Shown: positions 10,739-44,834 of the stretch, in pieces | Layout: every line of letters starts with the position of its first letter | Numbering within the stretch: the first letter of the stretch is position 1 | Origin: Alphaproteobacteria bacterium | GTDB lineage: Bacteria > Pseudomonadota > Alphaproteobacteria > UBA9219 > RGZA01 | NCBI GenBank assembly: GCA_028278105.1 | Contig: JANQEX010000043.1 | Location: 1,055 to 65,054, forward strand | DNA: 64,000 nucleotides | Direction of reading: 5' to 3' | Notes under the pieces: model-generated | The model's database searches: none | The model's input: the letters and a program-made list of their open reading frames with translations, nothing else | What the model was told of the DNA's origin: nothing | Made by a program: the position numbers and the translations under genes

Positions 10739-11101
10739 TCACTTTTTCTTCAAGCCAGAAGCTATGGCCAACTCCGCGCGGCACGCTTGCTCAAGAAGCG
10801 GCAAATCGTCCCGGACAAGCTTCCAGAGTATGTCGGGGGCGAGGCGTTCATAGTCGTGCCGCAACACATTGCCGATCCCGGCGACCTTGTGCCACGGGAT
10901 CGCGGGATGGCGCGCCTTGATGCTGTCTGGAATGTGCCGGCTGGCTTCAGAAATAATTTCCATGCCGCGCTCGACAAGCCAGCGCTTCTGCCAGTCGCTT
11001 TCGAAGGCTTCGATGCTCACGCCGTCCATGACGGCGCGAACATGCCCGGCGGCCTCAACCATGTCGTTCAGCCGCAAAGAGACGTTACGCGGCTTCATCA
11101 A
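10739..11101 (-). CDS. hepT: HepT-family (DUF86) toxin of a HepT/MntA toxin-antitoxin pair
   Basis: 120 aa. Overlaps the upstream mntA-like gene by 4 nt. Confidence 0.75.
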   Translation of the reverse strand: MMKPRNVSLRLNDMVEAAGHVRAVMDGVSIEAFESDWQKRWLVERGMEIISEASRHIPDSIKARHPAIPWHKVAGIGNVLRHDYERLAPDILWKLVRDDLPLLEQACRAELAIASGLKKK

Positions 11102-14466: not shown

Positions 14467-15435
14467 CTAGCCTCCCCCGATGTCGTTCATGATAACGTCG
14501 GCGCTTTTCGGCTCGCCGACAACAAGGCGGATTTTCCCGGACCGGCCGCGATAAAGAAGATAGGGCGTGTGATCCACTTTCCATTTCTGGATGAGCGTGG
14601 TGTTGCCGGCCAGCGCCGTCATGTGTTCGGGAGCGGGCATCTTGTCCTTGAAGATTTCCGTATCGCCTGCCATGTATTTTTTCCAGGCGGACACCGGATC
14701 TTTCAGGCCAAGCCAGGCGGCTCCTTCCATCTGCGATTTCGCCCCCATGGCCGCGATGGGAAACAGCGTCACGCGCAGCTTGCCCTGATCCACAAGCGGC
14801 GCCAGCTTCTTCCAGGCGTTGTGACAGTGATGGCAGTTGACATCCATGATCATCACAAGCCGCGGCGCCTTGGGCGGCCCCAGGGTCACCGTCCGGCCGG
14901 CAAGAAGCTCGGCATAGAACTTCTCGGCCCCGCCGGAAGGCGCGGAAGCCTGTGGGACAGGCTGTCGCGGCACGGACGCGGCGGCCGGCATGCTCTCCCC
15001 TTTCAGAATGGCCTGAATCTCAGGCCGGCCATTGGCCAAGGCCAGAATCTGCTGCTGCGAGATATTCGCTCCTTCCGGCGAAAGCAGCGCCCCCACGATC
15101 AGCGCCTTTTGGCCGGGGGTGGTGTAGAAGATCTGCACCTGCCCGTCCTTTACCGCGAACCAGCCGTCAAGTCCGAGCGCCGGACCCAGGTAGTAAATCG
15201 TCGTTCCGGCGCGGCGCAGATTCTGCATGAACAGGATCGATGACGTATCGGGAACGCCCGTCGCGGCAGGCGGTTTTTCGGTCTCCACCGGCAAAGGCTC
15301 CGGCGCGGCGGCCTTTTCCGGCGAAGGCGGCGCGGCAGTAACGGGAGAGGCCGGCTTTTCCGCCTTTTTTTCCCCGGCCCACGCCGGCGCGGCCAGCAAA
15401 AGACTTGCAAAAGCAGGTATTAGAAAAAATCTCAT
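14467..15435 (-). CDS. Thioredoxin-fold thiol:disulfide interchange protein (TrbB/DsbC-like conjugal transfer protein)
   Basis: Signal peptide MRFFLIPAFASLLLAAPAWA and CxxC active site VNCHHCHNAW. Start set at the internal Met. The longer ORF-track version translates through a MITE copy. Confidence 0.6.
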   Translation of the reverse strand: MRFFLIPAFASLLLAAPAWAGEKKAEKPASPVTAAPPSPEKAAAPEPLPVETEKPPAATGVPDTSSILFMQNLRRAGTTIYYLGPALGLDGWFAVKDGQVQIFYTTPGQKALIVGALLSPEGANISQQQILALANGRPEIQAILKGESMPAAASVPRQPVPQASAPSGGAEKFYAELLAGRTVTLGPPKAPRLVMIMDVNCHHCHNAWKKLAPLVDQGKLRVTLFPIAAMGAKSQMEGAAWLGLKDPVSAWKKYMAGDTEIFKDKMPAPEHMTALAGNTTLIQKWKVDHTPYLLYRGRSGKIRLVVGEPKSADVIMNDIGGG

Positions 15436-15620
15436 GAACCGAGTCGCACAGAACCCCGTCACCCCCGCGAAGGCGGGGGTCCACGTTTTAAAACTTTTTA
15501 TTTTTGATAAAGGATCTGTAGCGTGGATGCCCGCCTTCGCGGGGGTGACGGTTCTTCTTGTAGAATGTGCCGGCCCAAAGAGCCCTTGGCATAACAGCAG
15601 TTTCCGCATGAAATTTCCCG
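15424..15620. mobile_element. MITE-like element copy 1 (28-bp near-perfect terminal inverted repeats GTCACCCCCGCGAAGGCGGGGGTCCACG)
   Basis: Arms at ~15458..15485 and ~15524..15551. Conserved flanks aaaaatctcatgaa... and ...ttcttgtagaatgtgcc...gcatgaaatttcc shared with the copy at 17170. Confidence 0.6.
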
Positions 15621-15668
15621 CTCCCGTATCCGATGGGGAAGTCACGGCGCGCCGGAGCGGAGGAAGGA

Positions 15669-16133
15669 TCACCGCCCGGCCACGCGCATGTTGCGTTTTC
15701 TGGAACGCGCGTCGCCATCATATTCAATCAGGCCCTGCCGGTCCATGGCGGCGATGACCTTATACGCATAGGCCGAGCCCAGCTTCGGCGTGGCTGAATG
15801 ATAGCGGGCGATGCCACCGAACAGGTTGCCGCCCGCGGCGTTCAGTTTTTGCTTCAGGATCCACGCCGCCACATGCAGGTTCACGCAGCCATCGTCGCGG
15901 ACCCATTTGCGGGCCGTTTTCCGGTCGACCTTCCAGTAGCGCGACAACTGGGGCAGCCAGTGGGTGTTGACCTGCATGGGACCAAGATCGTAGGTGCCGT
16001 TTCCATTCGGGCCCACTTCCTGGCCGATATGCCCGCCTTCCACGTTCAGAATGCCCACCATCACCTGCGGCGGCACGTCGTAGGCGCTGGACGCCATCAG
16101 GAGGCAGGCGGCGAAGACTTGAAGGGGAGTCAT
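15669..16133 (-). CDS. Lytic transglycosylase (SLT domain), specialised T4SS/pilus peptidoglycan hydrolase
   Basis: Signal peptide MTPLQVFAACLLMASSAYDV and GPMQVN motif. Start set at the internal Met to avoid overlap with the upstream gene. Confidence 0.7.
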   Translation of the reverse strand: MTPLQVFAACLLMASSAYDVPPQVMVGILNVEGGHIGQEVGPNGNGTYDLGPMQVNTHWLPQLSRYWKVDRKTARKWVRDDGCVNLHVAAWILKQKLNAAGGNLFGGIARYHSATPKLGSAYAYKVIAAMDRQGLIEYDGDARSRKRNMRVAGR

Positions 16134-16161
16134 GGGGCTTGGTCCATCCTCAGGGTTATTT

Positions 16162-17049
16162 CTAATTGTCCATGGCCTGCTCATCAAGCCGCGCCGATGA
16201 CGGCACATCAAGATAAGTGATCAGTGTGGCCAACATGGCCATGCGCTGGTCGAAGGACTGCCAGACAAAGGTTAACGGCGGGATCTGGTCATGCTCCTTG
16301 AAATAGGCGTCCCGCTCGTCCTTGTCCATGTAGAGCAGCCGGTCGGCCTCGGCGAAATGGCAGTCGGAGTAAAGGAAGCCGGCCGCCTGCAAGACGCTCC
16401 AGCACAAGAGACGCCAGTCGCGCGGTGTGCATCCGGCCGGGGCCAGCCCGCGCGTGACCTGGTCGGCCGTGCGCAAAATGCGCTCCGACACCTGCGCCAG
16501 CATCAGATGCTCGGCCCGGCCGAAGGAATATTGCGCCACGGCGTTCACCACCGGCACCAGCGCCTCCAGCATACGGGCGCGGAAGGTGCCAAGCGTGTTG
16601 GGCGCGTTTTCGCCCGGAGCCACGGCCTGGCTCTGGAATTTCTCTTTCGTCTCGAACACCGCCTTGGCCAGCGTGGCGGCCTCGTCGGGCGTGGGCGGCT
16701 GGCTCGTGGCGCGGAAACGCGCCGCCACCGCATGGGCGCCGGCCGCGATGATGTTCCAGCGCACGGCGTCCTCCACGGCTTCCCCGCCTTCGTTCAAGGC
16801 TTCCAGCGTGGTCTCGGCCAGGGCCAGGGTGGCTTCCACCAGCCCGGACAGAAGCTGGGATTCCTGCTCCGGCGAGGGCGGCTCGGCCGATTTCGCGGCG
16901 CGATGCGCCTCGGCGATCACCTGAAGCAACGGGGTAATCACATGCTTCATCACCGCGACGCGCGCATGCAGCTCCGCCCTGGAGCCGGAGACGGGCTTGC
17001 CTTCGGTATTTTCGTCGGGCTTGATGCTTTGAGCGGCGGGGTCGGTCAT
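16162..17049 (-). CDS. Hypothetical cytoplasmic protein (295 aa) in the T4BSS island
   Basis: Start MTDPAAQSIKPDE at 17049. No recognisable motif. Immediately preceded (minus strand) by the GAACCT/GGTTCGA repeat array. Confidence 0.4.
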   Translation of the reverse strand: MTDPAAQSIKPDENTEGKPVSGSRAELHARVAVMKHVITPLLQVIAEAHRAAKSAEPPSPEQESQLLSGLVEATLALAETTLEALNEGGEAVEDAVRWNIIAAGAHAVAARFRATSQPPTPDEAATLAKAVFETKEKFQSQAVAPGENAPNTLGTFRARMLEALVPVVNAVAQYSFGRAEHLMLAQVSERILRTADQVTRGLAPAGCTPRDWRLLCWSVLQAAGFLYSDCHFAEADRLLYMDKDERDAYFKEHDQIPPLTFVWQSFDQRMAMLATLITYLDVPSSARLDEQAMDN

Positions 17050-17060
17050 CAGGGAGGTGT

Positions 17061-17126
17061 GGAGGTTCGGAGGTTCAAAGGTTCGGGGGTGCGAGGGTAC
17101 GGGGGTTCGAAGGTTCAAGGGTTCAT
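17061..17126. promoter_or_regulatory. Array of GGTTCGA/GGTTCAA direct repeats immediately upstream of a minus-strand gene start
   Basis: ggaggttcggaggttcaaaggttcgggggtgcgagggtacgggggttcgaaggttcaagggttc. The same motif array recurs upstream of the icmL-like operon at 39383..39440. Confidence 0.4.
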
Positions 17127-17169
17127 TCTCCCTGAATATTATTAAGTTCCGGCTTCTTCCTGCCGAATA

Positions 17170-17350
17170 ATACCAAAAATCTTATGAAATGACTCACGGC
17201 TTGCACGAACTGTCACCCCCGCGACGGCGGGGGTCCACGCTTTAAAACTTTTGTTTCGATGGTTTTCCAGCGTGGCTGCCCGCCTCCGCGGGCATGACCT
17301 TTTTTCTTGTGGCATAGGTCCGTTCATAAGGCCGTTGGCATGATTTCCAG
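17170..17350. mobile_element. MITE-like element copy 2
   Basis: ataccaaaaatcttatgaaatgactcac...gtcacccccgcgacggcgggggtccacgc...gcgtggctgcccgcctccgcgggcatgac...ttcttgtggcat... Confidence 0.6.
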
Positions 17351-17379
17351 TTTCCAATCCATGCTTGGCTCAAGGGGTA

Positions 17380-17415
17380 AAGAAAAAGTTAAGGGCGGCT
17401 GGAGCCGCCCTTTTT
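17380..17415. terminator. Bidirectional rho-independent terminator
   Basis: gggcggctggagccgccc stem with TTTTT on the plus side and AACTTTTTC on the minus side. Confidence 0.5.
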
Positions 17416-17423
17416 AAAACACA

Positions 17424-17499
17424 GGGGACACAATAAAATGCGCAAGGACAGAGGCGCCCCAAAAGCAGCACACCCGCCGGCGCATTTTATTGTGTCCCC
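17424..17499. repeat. Perfect 20-bp inverted repeat with 36-bp spacer
   Basis: ggggacacaataaaatgcgc (17424..17443) and gcgcattttattgtgtcccc (17480..17499). Confidence 0.7.
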
Positions 17500-17509
17500 G
17501 TCGCTTCTA

Positions 17510-17550
17510 TTGCCCCCAAAAATTAGGGCGGCTTCCGCCGCCCTTGAACC
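17510..17550 (-). terminator. Rho-independent terminator after the 580-aa gene
   Basis: gggcggcttccgccgccc hairpin. The minus-strand reading is followed by TAATTTTTGG. Confidence 0.45.
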
Positions 17551-17572
17551 ACGCGCCCATGGCAGAAACGCG

Positions 17573-19315
17573 CTACCGCCCCGGCGCGGAAACAAGAATG
17601 GCCTTGACCTGCGGCATATAAGAAGGCTCCTCGACCTCCGGGGCCGAGGCACGGACCACGGCCGGGCGGCCATTGTCATCGTCAACAAACCCGTCGCCCG
17701 GCACCGCCACGGCGGGGATAATGCCGCCCTTCATGCCGACGCCCGCCATGGCGAACATCTGCGCGAGCGAAGCGGATCTTTCGAAGGATTCCGGCGCGGC
17801 CCAGCCACGGCCCGAAGCCGGGCTCTCCCCCGGCCTGCCGCTATCGGCGTACATTGTTGTCCCGTCGCCGTAGAATTCATGGATGACTTCCGCAATGATC
17901 CTGTCCTGTTCGGCATGCCATTCATGAAGCTTGCCGCGCACGGCAAGGCGCAATTTCTTGAATTCAGGCGATTCAAGCATGGCGATGAATTTGGGGTCTT
18001 CAAAGCGCCAGAGCCGGGCCATATTCACGCCAGCACTCAACCCTGCCCCTAAGGCTATACTTCCCCCCCCGGCAATCGAATTAAGTATATCAAGGTTCTT
18101 TTGAGCATAGGAAGCTGCCGCATTGTTTTTTGCGAAAGCCTGCCCTTTTCCTGACTCCGGCGCGTTTGAATTGTCGGCATATCTATTCATGGCCGCAGTG
18201 GCCTCGGCCAACTCGCGGTTGGAACGGCATTTTTCCTTGCTTGCCTTGTATCCAACGCTTTTACGCATATCCTCCGCATGCTGGTGTGACTTGTCGCATT
18301 GTGGCAAGGAGAAATCATCTATTAGAGCATCAACTATGTTATTAATGACTCCTGCGCAATAGGTCCTGTGCATAAGTCTTGCATAATTTTCAGTTTTACC
18401 CATGGGAGTTTTCGCGCGGTCATCCCAATTTAAAGACCCCGTGGGGGGGCACCGCCCCGCAGCCGCAGCCAAGACCGCGCTCAATTTCTTTCCGCCTTTT
18501 AGCGGAATATTCTTTCCCTTCGCAAGGCTGGGATTAATACCCCAAAGCTTCACGCTGTCTTCCCCATCACCGCCACTGCCGCTATCACCGCCTTCCAGCT
18601 TGGCTATGTCAAGCGCCTCTCCGGCATCCTCAACAAGCTTTGCCCATGCTATTGCAGTGCCATCCGCGCTTTCTTTGTGTGAATTTAATTCCTCGAAAAT
18701 TCTAGTTAAAGATTTGTGTACAGCTGCGGGGATATTCATGTTCTGCTGCGCGGCTTTCGTCATGGTGCGCGCGCGGGATTCCGCCGGGTGGTCCGTCTTG
18801 CCGCCGCCGGTTGCAACCAGAATGAGCCCCGCGGGCGATATCAGCCCATGCGTCTCGATATTGGCAAAACCACCACCGCCATCGTTGTAAGGCAGCTTGT
18901 AGGTCTTGGCCAATTCATAACTGCGCGTGCGCATCAACTCGTGACGTTCGTTGTCCTGGGCGTATTCCAGCCGCTCGCCCTTCATCTGGGCATCGGCCAT
19001 GATCTGGGAATTGGTTGAAGCGTGCCCGCGGGGTTGGTCATCTGTATTCGTGTTCAATCTCGAAACGGTAGAATCCGTATTTTCTGAAATGGTGTTCAGA
19101 AGCTTTATCATCTCTGCCTGCGATGGCAGCGTGGCTGGAGGTCCTGCCAACGGGCGACCTTTATATTTACCATGGGGATCACCGTTTCTCTCTGTATACC
19201 CTCCATGGCTCCCGGCGCGGCTTGCCAGCAACGTTTCAGGCAGGGCAAGTCCGGCAACAAGAACGATTACAACGGAAACGCGCACGTAAATACGAAGAAG
19301 GGCGGATTTTTTCAT
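17573..19315 (-). CDS. Hypothetical N-terminally membrane-anchored protein (580 aa), large secreted or periplasmic region
   Basis: MKKSALLRIYVRVSVVIVLVAGLALPETLLA signal anchor with GGGAGG RBS. A low-GC stretch lies inside (~18050..18420). No recognisable family. Confidence 0.4.
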   Translation of the reverse strand: MKKSALLRIYVRVSVVIVLVAGLALPETLLASRAGSHGGYTERNGDPHGKYKGRPLAGPPATLPSQAEMIKLLNTISENTDSTVSRLNTNTDDQPRGHASTNSQIMADAQMKGERLEYAQDNERHELMRTRSYELAKTYKLPYNDGGGGFANIETHGLISPAGLILVATGGGKTDHPAESRARTMTKAAQQNMNIPAAVHKSLTRIFEELNSHKESADGTAIAWAKLVEDAGEALDIAKLEGGDSGSGGDGEDSVKLWGINPSLAKGKNIPLKGGKKLSAVLAAAAGRCPPTGSLNWDDRAKTPMGKTENYARLMHRTYCAGVINNIVDALIDDFSLPQCDKSHQHAEDMRKSVGYKASKEKCRSNRELAEATAAMNRYADNSNAPESGKGQAFAKNNAAASYAQKNLDILNSIAGGGSIALGAGLSAGVNMARLWRFEDPKFIAMLESPEFKKLRLAVRGKLHEWHAEQDRIIAEVIHEFYGDGTTMYADSGRPGESPASGRGWAAPESFERSASLAQMFAMAGVGMKGGIIPAVAVPGDGFVDDDNGRPAVVRASAPEVEEPSYMPQVKAILVSAPGR

Positions 19316-19326
19316 GGCTGGCCTCC

Positions 19327-20298
19327 CTATCTCTGCCAGGGCATGCCGGTTGCTTCCGGCGAAACTGTTACCGAGACCGGCCATGCGATGATCGGAGCCA
19401 TACCATCCGGCCCGGACACGTTCTTATATTGAGGCGGCTTGATCCATTTATTCGATGAAGCGCTGCCGCCGCCGCATTTGAACCAGAATTCCTGCGTCTC
19501 GCATTCCTCGCCTTCGCGTTGTTGAACCTTTTTCACCTTGCTTTTGTTTTGCCCGCCCTTGTTGGGACGTGTTTTGACTGATTTCGGCCCATCCAATTGT
19601 TGCTCGTCGCGCGTTTGCGCCAGCTTCTTCATGCCCTTGGTGACTTTTTTGGCCGATTCATCACCACGGCAGTTTGCGCCATGGACCGCGCCCTTGCAGG
19701 TCCTGTCCATGTGGTTGTCTCCGTCAGAAAAACCACCCAACGCCTTCATCAATGCCCCCATCGCTCCCTGCACAGGAATATATAATTGCCTGTCGGGTTT
19801 TACGGGTCCGGCATCCGGGCGGAAAACCACCTTTTCAAAAACCGCTTTGGCACGCGGCGCATCGGTCTTCGTCCTGACCACGCAAGCCATGACCTGGCCA
19901 TCGCCAAGGCTGGCTTCAACATAAGCGGGCGCGCTGTTTCTGTTGCCGTTGAACAGGCCCTTGAATGTCGTCAGAATTTTTTCAAGTCCGGAATCATAAT
20001 CCGCAACCATGATTTCCTGGTTGCCATTGGCCGGGCTTTTTCTTGACGATCCGTCCACCCCGGTAATTTCTTTTTCCGTGCCACCATCCGCGTCCTTCCT
20101 TGAGGGATAGGCCGCGAACATTTTCGCGGCAAAATTCACCTCTTTCTTATAGGCTTCCTTAAATGCGCTATTGATGGCTTGGGACTCCTCACTATCTATG
20201 CCGGGGCCCCCAGCAAAAAGCGGGGGAGGAGTAAAGGCGGCGATGCAAAAAAAAGCGGCAAAAAGGGCCAGGAAGGCGAAAGACGGTTCCTTCTTCAT
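19327..20298 (-). CDS. Hypothetical secreted protein with Lys-rich C-terminal region
   Basis: MKKEPSFAFLALFAAFFCIAAFTPPPLFA signal peptide. The whole gene sits in a low-GC segment. Confidence 0.4.
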   Translation of the reverse strand: MKKEPSFAFLALFAAFFCIAAFTPPPLFAGGPGIDSEESQAINSAFKEAYKKEVNFAAKMFAAYPSRKDADGGTEKEITGVDGSSRKSPANGNQEIMVADYDSGLEKILTTFKGLFNGNRNSAPAYVEASLGDGQVMACVVRTKTDAPRAKAVFEKVVFRPDAGPVKPDRQLYIPVQGAMGALMKALGGFSDGDNHMDRTCKGAVHGANCRGDESAKKVTKGMKKLAQTRDEQQLDGPKSVKTRPNKGGQNKSKVKKVQQREGEECETQEFWFKCGGGSASSNKWIKPPQYKNVSGPDGMAPIIAWPVSVTVSPEATGMPWQR

Positions 20299-20499
20299 GA
20301 AAACCCCCTGCAATTTTAATAAATCTCGATGAATTTGCTACCAAACCGTTAACAACCGCTTAATTTACTTGCAAGGATTCAAGGCTTTCTGGCGGGGGTT
20401 ATCCACGGGAAAAAATGGGTGAAAGCAGTGACAAGGAAAAAAACCGGTAAACCCGGCTTTCACCTTCCCGCCTTCTGATTTCCGGCCTCTGACTTCTGA

Positions 20500-22011
20500 T
20501 TACTGAACCGGGAAGTCCTGCCGGATGGGAGGCAGCATGGCGCCGGGGGAGGCATGGGCGGGAGCGGGGCCGGAAGGCGGCGCGGCATCCTTTGCTTCGG
20601 ATTCCGGACCGGATTCGGTCAGCCGCGCCGCGACGCTTTCCGCCCGCATGTTGGGCTGATGCTTCCGCTTCCTCGCCCGCGCTTCCAGCGCGCGGGGCAG
20701 TTTCTCCGACGCCGCTTCCAGCGCGCGCGTCAGCCTGCGGATTTCCTCCATCAACTCGCGCGTGGTGTTTTCGGAAATTTCTCCCTCTCCCACCGGCCTG
20801 TCGCCGCGGCGCGGCACAATATCATAATCATCTTCCTTCGCGGCCAGCGCAGCGGCATGCAAAATCTTGTTGTGCTCCGCGATGCGCGCGTCAATGCGCT
20901 CCTCAAGCTCCAAACCAAAAAGCTCCAGCTCCGGGGGCGTTCTTTCGCCTTTCGTGCCCAATTGGGCCCTGCGGTCACGAATATTCATCCCGACATTGCG
21001 CTGCCAGCGGCTGAGGCAATAGCCCTTGGGCGGCCGCTCCATGCCATGCCCGTGCGTGAATACGTTCAAAAGCTCCTCGTAAGACCCGGCGTTGTTTTTT
21101 CCACAGTCTTTCAAAATCTTGTCCGAGGGACACATGTGCCAGCTAAGCGCGATGAGGATCGGGTTGATTTTGGCTAGCATGCCCGTCATGGCGCTTAGAA
21201 TACCCGTGTCGTCCCTGATGCCGCCGGCCGTATCCAGCTTTCTTCCGGCGGGGCGGGGCTCATGCAACTCCATCCTCAGGCGTATGTGCAAAAGCGCCAC
21301 CATCATCTTGCGCATGTGCGGGTCGGAAATCTTGTATTCGTCCTTGGTAAGAAAATTGTGCAGTTCGACCTTGATTTTTTCGGGATCATACGGGAGGCAC
21401 CAGGTATCCAGAATCGCGCGCGTGAGCGATACATCGGCGCCTTCAACATCGTTCCATGGCTGGTTTGGATTTGTCTTTATCTCAACATCACAGCCGTCGC
21501 GCTTGCCCATGGCGCCCAGATTGCACAGGGCCTTTCGTATTTTCCGCGCGCCAATCGCGGTTCCCGAATCGGGGGATGAAAACAGCCCGACGGCGAAGAA
21601 GTGCGCCACCTGATTCCGGAACTTCTTTTCCAAGGCGTCGCGCGCCACATCGTCCCGGCCCCAGGTTGCGAGCGCGCAGGCGTAATTCGATCCCGGCCCA
21701 AGTTTGGCGCGAAGCGCCGCCGCCGCAGCCTTGCGTTCCGCCTCGTCGATGGCGTCAATGGTGGCGCTTGTGCTTCTTTCCATCATCCCGGCAAGGGTTT
21801 TCATTCCGCTGACCGTGGCGGCCGTGTTCGAATTGATGCCCTGAAACAACTGGTTTACGGCGCCGATCAGGCTGCCGAAGATGCTGTTCAACGTTCCCAG
21901 CAACGCGCCCACGGCATTGTCGGCCCGCGCCGGCGCCGGCATGGCGCAGGCCAGAAACACGCCCAGAACCACCGCCGCCACGCTTCCCGGACCATTCGTG
22001 CGAAACATCAT
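20500..22011 (-). CDS. Hypothetical secreted protein (503 aa)
   Basis: Signal peptide MMFRTNGPGSVAAVVLGVFLACAMPAPARA. Several conserved-looking Cys residues. No family recognised. Confidence 0.4.
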   Translation of the reverse strand: MMFRTNGPGSVAAVVLGVFLACAMPAPARADNAVGALLGTLNSIFGSLIGAVNQLFQGINSNTAATVSGMKTLAGMMERSTSATIDAIDEAERKAAAAALRAKLGPGSNYACALATWGRDDVARDALEKKFRNQVAHFFAVGLFSSPDSGTAIGARKIRKALCNLGAMGKRDGCDVEIKTNPNQPWNDVEGADVSLTRAILDTWCLPYDPEKIKVELHNFLTKDEYKISDPHMRKMMVALLHIRLRMELHEPRPAGRKLDTAGGIRDDTGILSAMTGMLAKINPILIALSWHMCPSDKILKDCGKNNAGSYEELLNVFTHGHGMERPPKGYCLSRWQRNVGMNIRDRRAQLGTKGERTPPELELFGLELEERIDARIAEHNKILHAAALAAKEDDYDIVPRRGDRPVGEGEISENTTRELMEEIRRLTRALEAASEKLPRALEARARKRKHQPNMRAESVAARLTESGPESEAKDAAPPSGPAPAHASPGAMLPPIRQDFPVQ

Positions 22012-22020
22012 GCCCGGCTC

Positions 22021-22557
22021 CTACGGTATGCCCGGAGTGGAAAAATAATCGCCCGCGCCACCGGTATAGGGCGTTCCATAAGAAGGCGTCACCGTGATGA
22101 GCTGCATTCCCTCGCAATAGCTGCTCTTGGTGGACAGGTTGAAGTCAAAACTCGGCATCGTGAAATTGGGAATGCAAATCTCGCTGGCCGCGTTTTGCAG
22201 CGGCTGCAGCGCCGCCTGGCACACCTGGCCCAAAACCTTGTTAATCGCGCTCTGGATCAGATTGTATAGCCCGGATGAAAACATGTTTCCGATGGAGTCA
22301 AAATTGCCCATGAGCGACGGGATGCAATAGAGCGAGGAAAAGTCGAACGGCTTGTTCCAGTTCCTCCCGAAAATGTTCATCGTTCGGACGGCGGCGTTGT
22401 GCCGAATGTCATTCATGTGCTTGAGGTCGTGATCATCGCAATAAAAATCGTCGCCGGAAGTGGTTAATCCACCCGCCGCCATGGATGGCACAAACATGGC
22501 AAGCGCCAAAACAAACATCCACGCGGCAGGGCCAAGGCATCGCCGGAAATCTGTCAT
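22021..22557 (-). CDS. Hypothetical secreted Cys-containing protein (178 aa)
   Basis: Signal peptide ...AWMFVLALAMFVPSMAAGG. Cys-rich mature region. Confidence 0.4.
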   Translation of the reverse strand: MTDFRRCLGPAAWMFVLALAMFVPSMAAGGLTTSGDDFYCDDHDLKHMNDIRHNAAVRTMNIFGRNWNKPFDFSSLYCIPSLMGNFDSIGNMFSSGLYNLIQSAINKVLGQVCQAALQPLQNAASEICIPNFTMPSFDFNLSTKSSYCEGMQLITVTPSYGTPYTGGAGDYFSTPGIP

Positions 22558-22699: not shown

Positions 22700-22768
22700 G
22701 GGTCGCAAGGGTCATGAGGGTCTTCTTTTGTTGACCCTGATGACCCTTCCGGCCCTCTCGACCCTTAC
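22700..22768. repeat. REP-like hairpin of the GGGTCATGAGGGTC family
   Basis: aagggtcatgagggtcttcttttgttgaccctgatgacccttccggccctctcgaccc. Relatives at 49036..49105, 60085..60180 and 60243..60310. Confidence 0.6.
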
Positions 22769-25200
22769 TCCGCCTCGCCGCTCTTTTCGCCGAACAGCGC
22801 CTGGGAAAGATGCCTGGCGCCTTTTTGCAACTCGGCCACCGCTTCGGGCGGCAGGTCTTTCAGCGCCGCGGCCTCATGCGGAAGCACCGTCACATCCTGC
22901 GGCTTGATCGAGGCGATGTCTTCCGGCCCCACGCCCATCTTGTTCAGGCGGCTGGTCGCCCGCGGGCGGTAATCGAAGGGATCGGTGAAAATGCTTCCCT
23001 CATCCATTTCCTCTTCCGGCAGAGGCTCTTCTTCCGGCAGGACGGCAGCAGCCTCTTCCTCCCCTTGCGGAACGCGCGGCGGAGCCGCCGCCTGCGGCGC
23101 CTCGGCCGCGAACGCCTCTTCCTCCTCGCTCATCGTCACCGAACCGCCGGATGCCATGCCCTGCCCTTCCTCGCGCGCCTTTTCGGCCAGGTCCGAGATG
23201 CCGGCCAGCGCGGCGACGCCCGCCCGCAAGGGATCCAGCTTCGCCCCCAATGCCGCCTCGAAACCCTTGGCAAGCTGCACCACTTCCGGCGCGGGCACGG
23301 TGGGCGAGCCCGCGCGCGCCGCCGACCAGTCGCCGTCCTCCAGCTTGCGGGCCAGACCCTCGATGGCGCGCTCGCGCGCGGCGGTGGCGGTGGTGGACGG
23401 CGGCACGGGCAACAGCTTTTGCACGCGCAGCGCCTGGACCCGCTTCGGCGCGGCGTGATAGAGCTGCGCCATCACCAGGAATTCGTGGAAAAGCATGTGC
23501 ACCTGGCCCTCGCGCTGCCGGCGCAGGTGGTCGTAGCTGGCGCGGGAGCGAAGGGTCACGCCCCCGGTGGCACGGTTGTCGATATAGGGCGTGTTCAGGA
23601 AAAAGCTGGACAGCAGGCTGGTCGGCGCGTTGAAGCCCTGCGTCTCGTAAACCCAGGACGTGCCCACATGGTCCTCGAAGAATTTCTTGGATTCAATCGG
23701 GTCTTCCAGCTTGCCGAAAATTTTCAGGTTGCAGTTGCCGAGGATGGACTGCGCCTCCTGCTTCACGCGCTTTTCCATGGCGGGCAGGTCCTGCGCGGCG
23801 AACACCAGCGAGAAACCCAGGGAGCGCGCCTGCGCCGCCATCACCGCCATGCCCTGCGCGGTATAGTAGCCGACTTCATCGAACACCGTCATATAGGGCG
23901 AGGGCGCGCGGGTGGCCTTGCTTTCAATCGCGTCCTCCCAGGCGCCTTCCACGGTCGCGCCCAGCGTGGCGCCCATCATGCCTTTCAGCGAGGCGGCGAT
24001 GATCTTGCCGAGGTTGGCCGCCTCGTCGCCCGATTTTTCCAGCGATGGAATAAGGCCGATCAGGATGCGCCGTTGCAGCACCACGTCGATCACATCCACG
24101 TCGGCAAGCTGCGCGCGAAAAATATAGCCGTATTCGTCGCCGAGAGACTGCATGGCGCGGGTAAACTGCATGGACAGATAGCCGTGCTGCTGGCGCGCGA
24201 TTTGCAGGTCGTACATGGGCGCGTCGGGGCTGGGCGGCTTTTCGTTGCCGTCGTCGTCAAAGGCTTCGTCCACATAGCCGGGAAGCGTGGCGAGATAGCC
24301 CTGCAGGCCGCGGATGATGCGCTCCGGCAAGGTGGAATCGCGCGACAGGCGCACGATGGGCTTCAGCTCGATATTGTCGCGCACCACGCTGATATCCAGA
24401 AGCTTGCCCTGCTTGTCGCGCTGGAAGGTCAGGGCCGGCATCAAGGCGAACATCAGGGCCACGGCGCGTTCTTTCCACATGGCGTTGTCGCCGCCGGCGT
24501 CGGGCATCAGGCTGACCAGCATGTTGGACAGGAACGAGGCCGAGCCCGTGGCAAAAGGGTTCATGGTATTGGACAGCGAGCCGTCGTCGCTGTTGCCGGT
24601 CATGTAGTTCAGTACCAGCAAATCGTCGTCGCGCCCGAAGCGCCGCGCCAGCGAATAGAGGTTGGCCCAGAGGTCGGTATCCGCCTTGCCATCGACATAC
24701 ACGAAGCCCGATCCCCAGATCAGCGAGTTGGACACAATCGACTTCAGCCCTTCGGTCTTGCCGGTGCCGGTGGTGCCCAGAAACAGGATATGGGTGCGGG
24801 CGTCGGAATTGGTCAGCCACAGCTCCTTGTTCGTTTTCGGATCGCGCTCGTTGCCAAGGAAAAGAATGCCTTCCGCCTTGCCCGCCACGCCGTCCTTGCC
24901 GGGAATGGGGTTCTGCGGGTCCTTCATCTCCGAAAAAGCGGGAAGCTTGAAGGGAAGCTTGAACGCCCTTTTATTGAACCACGTCATGTAAATTCCGGCG
25001 CAAACGGCAATCACATCCACCCAGGCCAGAAGAAAATGCGCGCCCGTCATGGGCAGGAATATCAGCGCCAGGGCCATAAAGAAAAAAGCATTGGCGATGG
25101 TGTTCGGCGCGCCCATGGCTTCCGCCATGCGCTGGCCGGCCGGCCGCACATCGCGGAACTTGCTGTTGAACGGCATTGCAAATTTTTCATGAATCGCCAT
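22765..25200 (-). CDS. dotL: Type IV coupling protein DotL/IcmO (TrbC of I-type systems; VirD4 family)
   Basis: 811 aa. N-terminal TM segments and Walker A LFLGTTGTGKTE. Acidic C-terminal tail. Confidence 0.75.
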   Translation of the reverse strand: MAIHEKFAMPFNSKFRDVRPAGQRMAEAMGAPNTIANAFFFMALALIFLPMTGAHFLLAWVDVIAVCAGIYMTWFNKRAFKLPFKLPAFSEMKDPQNPIPGKDGVAGKAEGILFLGNERDPKTNKELWLTNSDARTHILFLGTTGTGKTEGLKSIVSNSLIWGSGFVYVDGKADTDLWANLYSLARRFGRDDDLLVLNYMTGNSDDGSLSNTMNPFATGSASFLSNMLVSLMPDAGGDNAMWKERAVALMFALMPALTFQRDKQGKLLDISVVRDNIELKPIVRLSRDSTLPERIIRGLQGYLATLPGYVDEAFDDDGNEKPPSPDAPMYDLQIARQQHGYLSMQFTRAMQSLGDEYGYIFRAQLADVDVIDVVLQRRILIGLIPSLEKSGDEAANLGKIIAASLKGMMGATLGATVEGAWEDAIESKATRAPSPYMTVFDEVGYYTAQGMAVMAAQARSLGFSLVFAAQDLPAMEKRVKQEAQSILGNCNLKIFGKLEDPIESKKFFEDHVGTSWVYETQGFNAPTSLLSSFFLNTPYIDNRATGGVTLRSRASYDHLRRQREGQVHMLFHEFLVMAQLYHAAPKRVQALRVQKLLPVPPSTTATAARERAIEGLARKLEDGDWSAARAGSPTVPAPEVVQLAKGFEAALGAKLDPLRAGVAALAGISDLAEKAREEGQGMASGGSVTMSEEEEAFAAEAPQAAAPPRVPQGEEEAAAVLPEEEPLPEEEMDEGSIFTDPFDYRPRATSRLNKMGVGPEDIASIKPQDVTVLPHEAAALKDLPPEAVAELQKGARHLSQALFGEKSGEAE

Positions 25201-30592: not shown

Positions 30593-30895
30593 ATGGCAAA
30601 AGAAGATACAAGGCGTTATTCAAGAAGCGCGCTCGCAAGGATGAAGGCGCGGGGTGACCTGCGGGCCACGCCGTCCGACGCGCCGGAGATTGAGCTTGAC
30701 GAAGCTTTCTGGGAAAGGGCCCGCATTGTTGAAACGCGCCCGCGCCGCAAGGAATCGGTGCATCTGCGGCTTGACGCCGAAACGCTGGATTTCTACCGCG
30801 CCGCCGGCCAGGGTCATCTGACGCGCATGGCCAATATCCTGAAAGCCTATGCGGAGAGTCATGACAAACGCCGGCCGCGCGATGGCAACGCCTGA
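30593..30895 (+). CDS. BrnA-like (RHH/CopG, DUF4415-type) antitoxin, orphan
   Basis: 100 aa, ...VHLRLDAETLDFYRAAGQGHLTRMANILKAYAES. No BrnT-like toxin ORF is adjacent. Opposite orientation to the surrounding T4BSS genes. Confidence 0.55.
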   Translation: MAKEDTRRYSRSALARMKARGDLRATPSDAPEIELDEAFWERARIVETRPRRKESVHLRLDAETLDFYRAAGQGHLTRMANILKAYAESHDKRRPRDGNA

Positions 30896-31668: not shown

Positions 31669-32046
31669 TTAGCTGATGGGCGTCATCGGCACGAAGGGCG
31701 TCCGTGTCGCGCCTTCGGTCTTCAGCGATGTCGCCACCCAGCCCATGGCCGTCGGCAGAGCCGCGATCACGCCGCCGATGCCAAGGCGGGTCAGGCCCTG
31801 CGCCAGCGGATTTTGCGTTGGGTTGTCGGCGTGTTTCTTCAAAAGGCCCGCGCCGTGCATCATGGTGGCGCCACCGGCAAGGTAGGCCAGGCCCGACAGC
31901 ACGACCGGCATGTTGCCCATGCCTGTCTTCACCTCGTCGACCGACGTTTTCAGGGTTTGCGCCCATGAAACATCGGGGAACGCCGCGGCGATCACTCCGG
32001 CCGCAAGCGCGATCTTAAATACGTCCTGAAAAAAAGCGCGTTTCAT
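31669..32046 (-). CDS. Small secreted/membrane protein, IcmD(DotP)/IcmC(DotE)-like, paralogue of the next gene
   Basis: 125 aa, signal peptide then LSGLAYLAGGATMMHGAGLLKKHADNPTQNPLAQGLTRLGIGGVIAALP. Confidence 0.35.
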   Translation of the reverse strand: MKRAFFQDVFKIALAAGVIAAAFPDVSWAQTLKTSVDEVKTGMGNMPVVLSGLAYLAGGATMMHGAGLLKKHADNPTQNPLAQGLTRLGIGGVIAALPTAMGWVATSLKTEGATRTPFVPMTPIS

Positions 32047-32128
32047 ATTCTGCCTCCATAAAAAGTTAAACCAATGACCTTTCCTTATGTTCCGCCGCCC
32101 GCAACCTCGCGGACCGCGTTTTCATCCC

Positions 32129-32542
32129 CTAACAAAACCCTCCGTAAACCGAGGGCGTACCCATAAGGGACGAAATCTTTTCCATCTTCTTGAAGCCAAG
32201 GGCGTTGTTGCCCATGGCCAGCGAATTGTTGACCCACGCCATGAAAGGCGGCAGGCCCGCGATCACGCCCCCCACGCCGATGCGCACCACGCCGTGCGAC
32301 ATGGGCGTCTGCGACGGATTTTCCGCATGCATCTTCAATTTGTTCGCCCCTCCCAAAACCATCAGCCCGCCGAACGTATAGGCAAGGCCGGAGATGATCG
32401 TCGGCAGATCCTTCATCGCCTCGACCACGGCGGCCGCCGTCACCTGCATGTTCTGCCCATGCGCGAATTCCGGCCACGCCGCGGCAATCACCAGAGCGAG
32501 GCTGAGGCATTTGACGACATTCATGGGAACCCGCCGCATCAT
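32129..32542 (-). CDS. Small secreted/membrane protein, paralogue of 31669..32046
   Basis: 137 aa, ISGLAYTFGGLMVLGGANKLKMHAENPSQTPMSHGVVRIGVGGVIAGLP aligns by eye with the neighbour. Confidence 0.35.
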   Translation of the reverse strand: MMRRVPMNVVKCLSLALVIAAAWPEFAHGQNMQVTAAAVVEAMKDLPTIISGLAYTFGGLMVLGGANKLKMHAENPSQTPMSHGVVRIGVGGVIAGLPPFMAWVNNSLAMGNNALGFKKMEKISSLMGTPSVYGGFC

Positions 32543-32731
32543 GTTAAAAACTTTCCGTTTCCTCCAAAAAATATATCTCGTGAAATACTTTCATCCAATG
32601 TCTTTTAGCAAGACTTAATGATAACGTTGAAGAGATTAAAATTTGGATAAACTTTTATGCGTTTAACTTTCTCAACCATGTTTGGGATGGTTACCGTTAA
32701 AAAATCCTGAACGGAAATTTACCGAAACCGG

Positions 32732-33721
32732 TTAGCTGAGTATCTGGAAGCCCATCGTGCGCTCGATGACCTTGATGAAGCCGGGCATGTTCACCAGCAG
32801 CGTGCCGCCGATGATATGGGTAAAGGCCTGGCCCTTGGTGGCCTGCCCCTGCCCGTCCAGCGCATTGCGCAGCACAATAAAGCCGCGCACGAAGCTCAAG
32901 AGGCCGACAATATAAAGGAAGGTGAATACGGCCGAAACAGCATTGTTGAAGCGATCCATGTTGAAGCTTCCGCCCGGTGCATAGGCGATGCTGCTGTAAC
33001 GCACCACGTCGCGTTGATTCATGCCGTCGCCGAACAGCGTGCCAAGCGAAACGTCCAGCGTCTGCCCGATGGCCAGCAGCATCGCGCCGATCACAAGATT
33101 GGCCAGGATGGGCGTGAGCGTGTTTGATTTGGCGTCCGCGCCAAAGCGCGACAGGCGCACCATGTTCCAGAACACCATCGCCGCGCCGAGAATGATGCTG
33201 ACGAGGCTGATCAGCGATCCGATGGGCCCCTTGATGTTGTTGACGAAATTCATCAGCATTTCGTCAAGCGGCACCGCCGTGCGCGGATCGACGCCGGGTT
33301 CGTTACTGCAGCCGATATTGCTGGTATAGCCCTCCGGCGTCTCATACAGCGACTTGTGCAGGAACTCAATCAACCAGGGCAGCGTGTAAACGAACGCGCC
33401 GACGATAATCCCCAGCAATCCGTCGCGCAGCGGCTTGTTGGGATCGGAAGAGCGTTTGATAAGATCGAACGCGCCGCGCAGGAATATCGCGCCGCCCGCC
33501 ACCCACGCAATCGCCTGTATCAAATGCGGGATGCTGGACGAGTTGCGGAAGGCGTTGCAGAACATCTGCCCGGCCGATTCCGCCTTCACGCCGACATCCT
33601 GGGCGAAGCCGAGAACCGGATAAAAATAGGCAACCACCAGCGCGGCCACAAATACCGGGGCAAGGCTCTCATAGCGAAAAAACGGCGCGCGCATATCCTG
33701 TCCTGAAAAATCCTTCTTCAA
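32732..33721 (-). CDS. Polytopic inner-membrane protein of the T4BSS locus, unassigned
   Basis: 329 aa with at least 6 hydrophobic helices. Confidence 0.35.
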   Translation of the reverse strand: MKKDFSGQDMRAPFFRYESLAPVFVAALVVAYFYPVLGFAQDVGVKAESAGQMFCNAFRNSSSIPHLIQAIAWVAGGAIFLRGAFDLIKRSSDPNKPLRDGLLGIIVGAFVYTLPWLIEFLHKSLYETPEGYTSNIGCSNEPGVDPRTAVPLDEMLMNFVNNIKGPIGSLISLVSIILGAAMVFWNMVRLSRFGADAKSNTLTPILANLVIGAMLLAIGQTLDVSLGTLFGDGMNQRDVVRYSSIAYAPGGSFNMDRFNNAVSAVFTFLYIVGLLSFVRGFIVLRNALDGQGQATKGQAFTHIIGGTLLVNMPGFIKVIERTMGFQILS

Positions 33722-43554: not shown

Positions 43555-44832
43555 ATGAACGACCCCCCGGCCAAAAATCCCACGGGCATTCCTTTTCTCG
43601 ACTGGATCGACGCGCGCCTGCCGATCTTCAGCCTGATGCAAAAGGAATACGGCGCTTATCCCACGCCGCGCAATTTCAACTATCTGTGGAATTTCGGCGC
43701 CATCGCCATGGCGCTGATGTTCGTGATGATCGGCAGCGGCGTGATCCTGGCCATGCACTACACCGCCGACACGGAACTGGCCTTTAATTCCGTCGAGCGC
43801 ATCATGCGCGACGTCAATTATGGCTGGCTGATCCGCTATATTCACATGAACGGCGCGTCGATGTTTTTCTTTGCCGTTTATGTGCATATTTTCCGCGGGC
43901 TTTATTACGGCTCCTATAAGAAGCCGCGCGAACTGTTATGGATTCTTGGCGTCAAAATCCTGTTCCTGATGATCGCCACCGCTTTCATGGGCTATGTGCT
44001 GCCCTGGGGACAGATGAGCTTCTGGGCCGCCACCGTCATTACCAATCTCGTTTCGGCCGTGCCGTTCGTGGGCGAGCCGCTGGTCAACTGGATCTGGGGC
44101 GGCTTCTCGGTCGGCAATCCCACGCTTACCCGCTTTTTCGCCCTGCATTACCTGCTGCCTTTCGTGATTCTCGCTCTGGTATTCCTGCATGTGGCGGCGC
44201 TGCATGTCTGCGGCTTCAACAATCCTCTGGGCATCGACGCAAAATCCCCGAAGGATACCGTGCCTTTCCATCCCTATTACACGGTGAAGGATCTTTTCGC
44301 CCTTTGCGTGTTCCTTCTGCCCTGCGCCGTCCTCGTCTTCTGGATGCCAAACGCCCTTGGCCATCCTGATAACTACGTCCCGGCCAATCCCATGGTCACG
44401 CCCGCGCATATCGTGCCGGAATGGTATTTCCTGCCTTTCTACGCCATCCTGCGCTCTTTCACGGTCGACATCGTGGTGCCGTTCTCGCAGGTGGTGCTTG
44501 TTTCGTCCAAGCTGGGCGGCGTGATATTGCTGCTGGCGTCCATCGGCGTACTGTTCGCCCTCCCCTGGCTCGACCGCTCGCCGGTGCGCAGCGCGCGCTA
44601 CCGCCCCATCTATCGCGTGCTGTTCTGGATTCACCTCCTGGCCTGTCTTGGCCTGGGCTGGCTGGGGGCGCAGCCGGCGGAAGGCATCCATGTTCTTGCC
44701 AGCCAGATTCTGACCGCCTGGTATTTCCTGCATTTTCTTGTGTTCCTGCCGCTTTTGCCGAAGATCGAAAAATGTCCGCCGCTCCCGCCCGGCATTCATG
44801 AATATCTTCTTTCGAAGAAGAGGGAGGCTTGA
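43555..44832 (+). CDS. petB: Cytochrome b
   Basis: 425 aa, ...[26 protein letters not shown]..., a typical cytochrome b. Confidence 0.9.
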
Positions 44833-44834
44833 TC

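Follow-up and report, generated by a model that had tools for sequence, protein, structure and literature searches.

A fast-evolving block of exported proteins in a chromosomal type IVB secretion locus, with a putative TraW-family member and a candidate exchangeable gene pair

Background

The closest described counterparts of the genes studied here belong to the I-type conjugation system of R64 and the Dot/Icm system of Legionella. In the table of a 2025 review (PMC12624023), R64 TraW and Legionella IcmX are placed together in the VirB5 row, as a pentamer that caps the stalk, and a cryo-tomography preprint locates IcmX at the periphery of the plug. In Legionella, IcmX is periplasmic, and a truncated form of it is released into the medium. 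In the literature that we searched, nothing was found on what occupies the outward-facing end of type IVB systems or on how their target specificity is set.

Here we analyze a window of 64,000 nucleotides (contig JANQEX010000043.1 of assembly GCA_028278105.1), which carries a type IVB secretion system (T4BSS). The system belongs to Micavibrio-like alphaproteobacteria and is chromosomal: housekeeping genes flank it, no relaxase is found within the window and no integrase is found. Between its genes for DotL and for an SLT lytic transglycosylase lie five genes, which an earlier note had put forward as a candidate novel module of transfer, exclusion or effector proteins.

Layout and composition of the block

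Gene structure, profile-level family membership, synteny, rate differences, composition and cassette recurrence are what the analysis shows directly. The five genes, named G5, G4, G3, G2 and G1 in their order on the minus strand, are confirmed as co-oriented open reading frames with the lengths reported in the earlier note (Table 1). G1 is counted from its ATG, and its reading frame runs back to a TTG at 17118. G5 and G4 are separated by 9 nt and are translationally coupled, G3 and G2 are separated by 11 nt, and terminator-like hairpins stand on both sides of the G3-G2 pair, which suggests ...DotL-G5-G4, G3-G2 and G1-SLT-... as transcription units. The nested palindrome following G2 has a folding energy of -99.4 kcal/mol (z = -7.9); Rfam holds no family for it and gives nothing credible across the whole block.

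Table 1. Positions in the window of the five genes, their neighbors and the predicted signals between them
Feature	Position	Strand	Description
G5	22021..22557	(-)	178 aa; exported, four conserved Cys; probably TraL-like
G4	20500..22011	(-)	503 aa; exported, conserved Cys; putative divergent TraW-family protein
G3	19327..20298	(-)	323 aa; exported; Lys-rich C-terminal region; first in candidate G3-G2 cassette
G2	17573..19315	(-)	580 aa; exported; near-orphan; second in candidate G3-G2 cassette
G1	16162..17049	(-)	295 aa; acidic conserved cytoplasmic protein
DotL	22765-25200		flank of block
SLT transglycosylase	15669-16211		other flank of block
TrbB-like protein, CHHC motif	14467..15672	(-)	context gene
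Terminator-like hairpin	20439..20461	(-)	in G4/G3 gap
Nested palindrome	17385..17550	(-)	right after G2 stop; two terminator-like GC hairpins and T-runs
Sigma-70-like promoter match	17138..17166	(-)	upstream of G1; consensus match only

In accordance with the earlier observation that no domain is recognizable, Pfam and NCBIfam give zero matches for G1 to G5 at E<=1. Each of G2, G3, G4 and G5 starts with a single hydrophobic segment followed by an Ala-X-Ala-like site, and G1 has no such segment, in agreement with the four signal sequences noted before. Strong internal hydrophobic segments are absent from all five proteins, the only two weak windows being both in G4. Cysteines number 8 in G4, 6 in G5, 6 in G3 and 4 in G2. 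The Lys-rich tail assigned to one protein exists in G3 as a Lys-rich stretch near the C-terminus, not at its extreme end.

The low G+C content noticed earlier at ~18.0-20.5 kb is also borne out: it is 0.535-0.541 at 18-20 kb, and outside this stretch it runs at about 0.60-0.69. At the codon level the dip is confined to G3 (GC3 0.61, CAI 0.46) and G2 (GC3 0.60, CAI 0.40), the lowest values in the locus, while all other genes have GC3 of 0.70-0.88 and CAI of 0.49-0.77. GC3 exceeds GC2 in all five genes. Comparable dips in G+C content are also seen at 30-31, 32-33 and 40-41 kb.

Conservation of the block across other loci differs among its members: many loci contain syntenic homologues of G1, G4 and G5, and a few contain homologues of G2 and G3. 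The order G5-family gene, TraW-like gene (one to three copies), G1, SLT, TrbB, o104, DotD, DotC and DotB is common to about 25 loci. Among the plasmids of PLSDB, neither blastn of the block nor tblastn of G1-G5 gives any match. In an annotated Bosea plasmid, the architecture around the DotL homologue is different. Neither the window nor any of the relative loci examined shows a DotA/TraY partner (the VirB6 row), which leaves the stalk model incomplete here.

G4 and G5 compared with TraW and TraL

Curated models and sequence searches do not connect G4 to any described family. None of the 27 G4-family members matches Pfam (E<=0.1) or NCBIfam (E<=10); homologue searches with G4 alone and with a five-sequence G4 alignment recovered only G4 itself; a combined G5+G4+G1 alignment used as query gave no matches; and a TraW HMM built here hits no G4-family member at a significant E-value. 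Sequence and profile searches of the PDB with G4, the BIG family and TraW gave no match either, nor did the TraW profile find an IcmX chain there. By profile-profile comparison, hhalign matches the profile of G4 and 26 syntenic relatives to that of nine plasmid TraW sequences at 95.0% (E 3.6e-8) over 306 collinear columns with the conserved Cys included, a link that passes through the intermediate BIG family; the G4 subfamily alone reaches 0.8% against TraW. The BIG family alone matches TraW at 91.2% and the G4 subfamily matches the BIG family at 94%, while the reversed, column-shuffled and unrelated-family controls of the TraW match stay at <=5%. In addition, the c19 HMM matches G4 at E 1.3e-5. 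These profiles suggest that G4 is a divergent TraW-family protein, detectable solely by profile-profile comparison. Homology to known TraL-TraY/Exc proteins, named earlier as evidence against a novel module, is in this way found for G4, with no likeness to ExcA or TraY.

Like R64 TraW, G4 has a Sec signal, an N-terminal helical region, a conserved 'P..C' motif and a 'C-x(10-13)-C ... D-A-D' motif, with a collinear profile match of about 300 columns, and its gene sits in an I-type T4SS locus. Unlike R64 TraW, to which its identity lies below the reach of HMM-to-sequence detection, G4 is about 100 residues longer, has a distinct conserved C-terminal motif (...QEFPV..Q), comes after DotL and not TraU/TraV, with no TraY/DotA gene nearby, and has relatives with one to three tandem paralogues. 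Its conserved cysteines are C112, C163, C174 and C332. With an N-terminal signal that has an ARA-DN site, later hydrophobicity windows all <=1.66, and a gene lying between DotL and DotD/C/B, G4 has the features of a Sec-exported soluble periplasmic protein encoded within the T4BSS locus, which it is predicted to be. The comparison of G4 made here is with TraW, and the equivalence of TraW and IcmX is taken from PMC12624023. On the model proposed below, G4 would be, like the VirB5-type proteins at the tip of type IVA systems, exported, N-terminally helical, distal, fast-evolving and sometimes duplicated, and the link to VirB5 is drawn from the table of that review (PMC12624023).

Syntenic loci yield 27 members of the G5 family, in which C78, C113 and C148 are invariant and C128 is near-invariant. 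Against the family of R64 TraL, the G5 family profile gives an hhalign match of 65.6% (E 5.8e-5) with short coverage, namely 47 columns around the Cys core. Reversed and shuffled controls stay at <=2.2%, and none of 44 control families exceeds 7.5% with TraL, so that G5 stands out among the 45 families. When the HMMs are aligned, each of the three cysteines of mature TraL falls on a Cys position of the G5 profile. G5 resembles R64 TraL in its signal peptide and in the aligned cysteines, the 'NQvC.A..IN' helix included, and its size is close to that of the longer TraL variants (152-184 aa). It differs in having an additional C-terminal 'C.P.P...C.G' segment, and its gene adjoins the TraW-like gene, whereas R64 traL lies upstream of traM/dotI. 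From this comparison, G5 is probably a TraL-like component of the IncI type.

Divergence between related loci and the G3-G2 pair

The secreted genes of the block evolve far faster than the remaining machine. Between the closely related loci L002 and L047, amino-acid identity is 98.5% for DotO, 92.5% for DotL and 90.8% for G1, then 78.5% for G5 and 51.3% for G4. In the comparison of L001 with L002, the occupants of the G3 and G2 positions have been wholly replaced, sharing 9% and 21% identity, respectively. For G4, dN is 0.43 against 0.02-0.06 in DotO, DotM, DotL, G1, SLT and DotC. The dS values are likewise raised within the block, and the dN/dS of G4 is 0.2 with dS near saturation, so that this ratio is no proof of positive selection.

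A search of 1.84e9 representative proteins finds only three relatives of G2, and a profile of these relatives matches its positional counterpart in L001 (E 1.8e-25). G2 is predicted to be mostly helical; an AF2 model from four sequences has a pLDDT of 33, and PDB searches with G2 gave no match. G3 homologues lie directly upstream of G2 homologues, as seen in L132_330 (E 1.4e-6) and in L001_14990 (E 3e-8 to L132_330), and the G3-like and G2-like pair is found again in L001, L132 and L133, with signal peptides and Cys motifs kept in the alignment of the G3 family. In both the window and L001 the pair fills the identical slot, with the TraW-like gene on one side and G1 on the other, and in L002, L047 and L005 this slot holds other small-plus-large exported pairs. 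Taken with their codon usage, these results suggest that G3-G2 is a rare, compositionally foreign and tightly coupled exported gene pair that does behave as an acquired, exchangeable cassette, in agreement with the secondary acquisition proposed earlier for the low-GC part.

Several assignments tried for the two proteins find no support. As a TraW/BIG paralogue, G2 reaches at best 48.5% by hhalign over 66 N-terminal columns and otherwise <=22%; its profile gives no significant match to G5 or TraL; and as DotA/TraY it is not supported, having no internal membrane segments. For G3 as a paralogue of G5 or TraL, the match to G5 is 60%, most of it over the signal peptide, and that to TraL is 2%.

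G1 and its downstream genes

G1 appears to open a separate transcription unit, G1-SLT-TrbB-o104-DotD-DotC-DotB. Its orthologues are 45-71% identical, occur in 38 loci and always lie directly upstream of SLT/TrbB. No relative of G1 is found in Pfam, NCBIfam, the PDB or plasmids, and no match among the R64 proteins. The AF2 model of G1 from its single sequence is all-helical with a pLDDT of 41, and G1 is described here as a conserved acidic cytoplasmic protein, predicted to be all-helical.

The TrbB-like protein carries the motif VNCHHCHNAW and has no Pfam match; by phmmer, R64 TrbB matches members of its orthologue cluster. It is probably the periplasmic thiol-disulfide isomerase that serves those exported proteins which bear Cys, and whose dependence on it we infer.

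Discussion

Our analysis does not support one novel five-gene module, as G4 belongs by its profile to the TraW family, G5 probably relates to TraL, and G1 is cytoplasmic and in an apparently separate unit. We prefer a reading in three parts, to which we give a probability of about 55%. G5 and G4 would belong to the distal, periplasmic portion of the I-type machine, with G4 as the TraW-family protein of the system and G5 probably as its TraL-like partner. After export by Sec, the two would be oxidized in the periplasm, and the TrbB-like CHHC protein encoded next to them would presumably do this. This part would diversify quickly, duplicate (the one to three tandem copies in relatives) and be replaced by recombination, because it would be exposed to the exterior or to the target cell. 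G3-G2, lying between terminators at the end of the G5-G4 operon, would be an accessory exported two-gene cassette, rare, foreign in composition and horizontally exchanged, whose most likely effect is to add or change a factor, exposed at the surface or released, that acts with the tip module. G1 would be a cytoplasmic helical protein specific to this chromosomal T4BSS clade, heading the next operon. The tip location, the target-contact role and any function of G1-G3 are what we infer from these data.

The alternative that survives best, less probable but to be taken seriously, is that G3-G2 is unconnected with the T4BSS and is an independent mobile exported pair, adhesin- or toxin-like, which landed in a permissive terminator-flanked site. 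In L133 about 1.6 kb separates the pair from an IS1595 transposase, with an HTH gene near, on a 16.6-kb contig where no called gene has a T4BSS Pfam match; besides, the foreign GC3 and CAI, the terminator-like boundaries of its own and the extreme rarity of the family are all as such an origin would have them. However, the window and L001 have the pair in exactly the same slot, and the recurrence there of other exported pairs in L002, L047 and L005 suggests that the slot is selected for a machine-linked function.

It is quite unlikely that the block determines entry or surface exclusion in the manner of TraY/ExcA of R64, diversifying to define exclusion groups. Its position corresponds roughly to traV-traW-traX-traY-excA of R64, and it is hypervariable among close relatives, just as TraY/ExcA vary among related systems. 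However, phmmer and hmmsearch with R64 TraY/ExcA detect no similarity in the block, and the membrane topology is different, TraY being polytopic and ExcA an N-terminally anchored inner-membrane protein, while the block proteins have no internal membrane anchors of these types. The window also has no detectable relaxase, so conjugation itself is unproven. For the exclusion module suggested in the earlier note, nothing in the block resembles ExcA or TraY.

Still less probable is the other proposal of that note, that G2-G5 are translocated T4BSS substrates (effectors). They are indeed fast-evolving, lineage-specific and encoded inside a T4BSS locus, and truncated IcmX is itself released from Legionella; but all four carry Sec-type N-terminal signals and so fit poorly with Dot/Icm substrates, which are cytoplasmic, bear a C-terminal translocation signal and are recruited by DotL/IcmSW, and G4 is assigned by its profile to a structural family. 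That some of the frames, especially G2 and G3 with the lowest CAI and GC3 of the locus and almost no database relatives, are not real genes is hardly credible, given their length, their GC3 above GC2, their protein-level homologues as the same gene pair on independent contigs and their conserved signal peptides and Cys motifs.

Under the preferred three-part reading, the TraW/IcmX-family gene and its neighbors change far more quickly than any other part of the chromosomal T4BSS, which is well conserved apart from them; some relatives have them in duplicate, and in others they are swapped. Annotation pipelines miss the TraW/IcmX and TraL homologues in such systems, and metagenome counts of "incomplete" I-type systems may for this reason be too high. 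Should these proteins touch the target cell, they would be candidates for setting its specificity, which would matter for the secretion system of a little-studied, probably predatory bacterial lineage. A bolder proposal, which we hold to be rather improbable, is that the relaxase-less chromosomal T4BSS of predatory or episymbiotic Micavibrio-like alphaproteobacteria carries an exchangeable, hypervariable tip module deciding prey or host engagement, made up of TraW/IcmX-like paralogue arrays, TraL-like partners and swappable exported cassettes such as G3-G2. If this were true, the tip module would be a type IVB specificity cassette, with the PilV shufflon or the receptor-binding proteins of phages as its parallels.

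Layout and genomic setting of the secretion locus

What looks like a complete I-type (type IVB) secretion locus is encoded on the minus strand of the window; its features are collected in the table below. It begins with DotI, DotI/J, DotH, DotG, a DotF-sized protein and three small TraQ/TraR-like membrane paralogues, and continues with a TraT/DotN-like protein, DotO, DotM and DotL, which are followed by five genes, G5 to G1. Downstream of these are the SLT transglycosylase, a TrbB-like CHHC protein, a small membrane protein, DotD, DotC and DotB, and then a type IVb pilus cluster (PilS/R/Q/O/N-like). The longest membrane paralogue contains six hydrophobic segments and weakly matches TrbC/VirB2 in Pfam. 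R64 TraR matches an orthologue. All three paralogues are probably TraQ/TraR (DotE/DotP)-like.

Housekeeping genes directly flank the locus, among them formate-tetrahydrofolate ligase (FTHFS), cytochrome b/c1, an amidase, exosortase and EPS genes, panC, kdsD-like, two tRNAs and lptA/B. The entire 64 kb showed neither a relaxase nor an integrase. Among DotL relatives, the nearest (48-71% identity) all come from MAGs with the label Alphaproteobacteria, Rhodospirillaceae or Micavibrio, and many sit on contigs of 0.1-2.4 Mb; the best plasmid DotL is ~40% identical, and the G1-G5 block has no match to plasmids at the DNA level. Relaxase-less I-type systems have been noted, without further analysis, in seven marine Micavibrionales genomes (PMC9418006). 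Based on the housekeeping flanks, the lack of relaxase and integrase, the MAG labels, the divergence from plasmids and this report, the system is chromosomal, from a Micavibrio-like lineage, and not an obvious conjugative island. In the papers found, a chromosomal system of this kind, accompanied by an IncI-like thin-pilus cluster, does not appear to have been characterised.

Features of the window and tandem TraW-like genes in related loci (L numbers)
Feature	Sequence	Positions	Strand	Remark
T4BSS	window	about 585-39400	-
HepT-like RNase	window	10739-11101	-	toxin-antitoxin-type; between DotB and pil genes
G1	window	16162-17049	-	295 aa
Nested palindrome	window	17385-17550		~165 nt; in 523-nt gap between G2 and G1
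Inverted arms of palindrome	window	17424-17443, 17480-17499		perfect, 20 nt
G2	window	17573-19315	-	580 aa
G3	window	19327-20298	-	323 aa
Terminator-like hairpin	window	20461-20439		after G4
G4	window	20500-22011	-	503 aa; C-terminus at 20500-20560
G5	window	22021-22557	-	178 aa
Inverted repeat	window	22700-22755		23 nt, 87% complementary, 10-nt loop
BrnA-like antitoxin	window	30593-30895	+	toxin-antitoxin-type; opposite strand, between DotO and DotN-like gene
Three adjacent membrane proteins	window	31669-33721	-	125, 137 and 329 aa; mutual paralogues
FTHFS	window	40853-42517		housekeeping neighbour abutting T4BSS and type IVb pilus cluster
Cytochrome b/c1	window	43555-45599		housekeeping neighbour abutting T4BSS and type IVb pilus cluster
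Tandem TraW-like genes	L004	17682-20905
Tandem TraW-like genes	L088	6123-9599
Tandem TraW-like genes	L096	5055-9222
Tandem TraW-like genes	L102	6763-9679

Relationship of G4 to TraW and probable relationship of G5 to TraL

The earlier note described five co-oriented genes without recognisable domains, four with signals, and low GC at ~18.0-20.5 kb. Our analysis agrees on the open reading frames; G1-G5 have no Pfam or NCBIfam match at E<=1, and GC falls to 0.535-0.541 at 18-20 kb. In each of G2-G5 the N-terminus has one hydrophobic segment and a plausible site for signal peptidase; G1 lacks such a segment.

G4 can be placed at the profile level. It belongs to BIG, a family of 450-620 aa proteins in related loci (E 1.3e-5 to the c19 HMM; hhalign 94%, E 1.4e-7, 221 columns), and its C112, C163, C174 and C332 are invariant or nearly so in 27 sequences. 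Against a TraW family alignment from nine diverse plasmids, including R64, IncK, IncL/M, Rahnella, Xanthomonas and Janthinobacterium, the G4+BIG alignment scores a probability of 95.0% (E 3.6e-8), with 306 columns in collinear order from the signal peptide onward, and BIG alone 91.2%. Controls with either alignment reversed, columns shuffled five times or eight unrelated families from the same loci give <=4.8%, and each of the two alignments stays <3% against 45 other families. The link is invisible to HMM-to-sequence searches, and the five-member G4 subfamily alone gives only 0.8% against TraW; G4 is a TraW-family protein by remote homology established via the intermediate BIG family. A 2025 review (PMC12624023) puts R64 TraW and Legionella IcmX together in the VirB5 row, as a pentamer of the periplasmic stalk/pilus; any likeness of G4 to IcmX would run through TraW and this literature. 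A cryo-tomography preprint locates IcmX at the plug periphery and notes that the protein is released into the medium in truncated form (10.1101/312009).

For G5 the evidence is suggestive of a relation to TraL. The 27 family members share four conserved cysteines as well as a hydrophobic helix that ends in 'NQvCq', and all three mature cysteines of R64 TraL fall on cysteine positions of the G5 HMM. Profile-profile comparison (19 G5 and 9 TraL sequences) gives 65.6%, E 5.8e-5, over just 47 columns, with reversed and shuffled controls <=2.2%; the TraL profile gives 63% to the G5 cluster and <=7.5% to 44 other families. Longer TraL forms of 152-184 aa, comparable to G5, are found in pADAP and IncL/M plasmids.

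G5 and G4 lie 9 nt apart, and in relatives the corresponding genes overlap. Directly after the DotL stop, in the 207 nt that separate it from G5, lies the inverted repeat, a possible attenuator or terminator separating dotL from G5-G4. The G4 C-terminus and its orthologues in L001, L002, L047 and L005 share a terminal motif, L.P[IL].Q[DE]FPV..Q, preceded by ~100 highly variable residues; the motif could be a docking or processing signal.

Conservation and evolutionary rates

In these four loci, the closest relatives, the slot has the same gene order and sizes (about 180, 460-520, 113-296, 547-674 and about 290 aa). Identity to the window is 58-80% for flanking proteins, 67-71% for G1, 24-32% for G5 and 22-27% for G4. 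For the G3- and G2-position proteins, identity is down to noise level. Scanning metagenomes with the G1 alignment added 32 loci, and the wider architecture is an optional ~180 aa gene, one or two G5-family genes, one to three tandem BIG genes, G1, SLT, TrbB, the small membrane protein, DotD, DotC, DotB and pil genes. Some relatives have two or three tandem TraW-like paralogues, and some a long and a short G5-family copy (e.g. L085, L093, L096, L100, L102).

In many relatives (L004, L006, L086, L087, L090, L092, L114), DotL is separated from the G5/TraW-like genes by an insertion of two or three genes: by sequence inspection a GT4-like gene (~345 aa), one with multiple membrane segments (~400 aa) and sometimes a ~260-aa gene. 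This insertion, absent from the window, may hint at glycosylation of exported components or pilin.

Between L002 and L047, DotO is 98.5% identical, DotL 92.5%, DotC 92.2% and G1 90.8%, versus 78.5% for G5, 75.2% and 64.1% for the G2- and G3-position proteins, and 51.3% for G4. Between L001 and L002, DotO is 98.1% and G4 53% identical, and the G3- and G2-position proteins, at just 9% and 21%, must have been replaced. Nei-Gojobori dN is 0.43 for G4 versus 0.02-0.06 in DotO, DotM, DotL, G1, SLT and DotC, and dS is 2.2-2.4 inside the block versus 0.7-1.1 outside, which fits allele exchange from more distant lineages. The G4 dN/dS of ~0.2 is no proof about positive selection, because dS is near saturation.

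A separate G3-G2 cassette

The five genes, taken by the earlier note as one block, divide: G3-G2 is a cassette separate from G5-G4, with terminator-like hairpins, codon usage and relatives of its own. Only G2 and G3 deviate at the codon level (GC3 0.60-0.61, CAI 0.40-0.46, versus 0.70-0.88 and 0.49-0.77 in all other locus genes), and they are 11 nt apart. Besides the terminator-like hairpin after G4, G2 is followed by a pair of GC hairpins, complementary to each other and carrying T-runs, which flank the inverted arms of the palindrome. The whole folds as one hairpin (-99.4 kcal/mol, z = -7.9). It occurs only once in the window, has no counterpart in Rfam, and may act as a bidirectional terminator or represent a MITE-like insert. 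A promoter-like match lies upstream of G1.

Among 1.84 billion representative proteins, G2 has three relatives (E 4e-23, 5e-9, 2e-4), whose profile matches the L001 positional counterpart (E 1.8e-25). Both full-length relatives are preceded by a 330-350 aa gene; on contig L132 this gene's product is a homologue of G3 (E 1.4e-6) and of the L001 G3-position protein (E 3e-8), and on L133 it is only marginally similar (E 0.02). The G2 and G3 families have no significant profile match to TraW, BIG, G5, TraL or G1. On L133 the pair lies ~1.6 kb from an IS1595 transposase. The low-GC part behaves as secondarily acquired, as the earlier note suggested. The main rival explanation is that G3-G2 is unrelated cargo in a permissive site; in its favour, no called gene on the 16.6-kb L133 contig has a T4BSS Pfam match, and against it, the pair's positions are occupied in all four closest relatives. 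We favour an accessory exported pair, which would be horizontally exchanged in the same hot spot as G5-G4.

Proposed roles

G1 is acidic, without hydrophobic segments, and invariably directly upstream of SLT/TrbB. Orthologues share 45-71% identity, and conservation is very high in the C-terminal two-thirds; G1 has no relatives in Pfam, NCBIfam, PDB, R64 or PLSDB. An AF2 model made from the single sequence contains only helices but is unreliable (pLDDT 41). We propose that G1 is a cytoplasmic component, specific to this clade, of the next operon.

The proposals that the block is an exclusion determinant (ExcA/TraY-like) or that its proteins are translocated effectors both fit poorly: R64 TraY and ExcA are unmatched, and G2-G5 carry signal sequences. 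No DotA/TraY-like polytopic protein is found in the window by a hydrophobic-segment scan, with R64 TraY as the sole sequence probe. The simplest reading, in which we infer location, partners and function, is that G5-G4 are distal periplasmic machine parts: a TraW/IcmX-type cap and, as its partner, a TraL-like protein. To fold, these would need the neighbouring TrbB, which resembles a disulfide isomerase, and being exposed to the target cell would push them to diversify, duplicate and be replaced.
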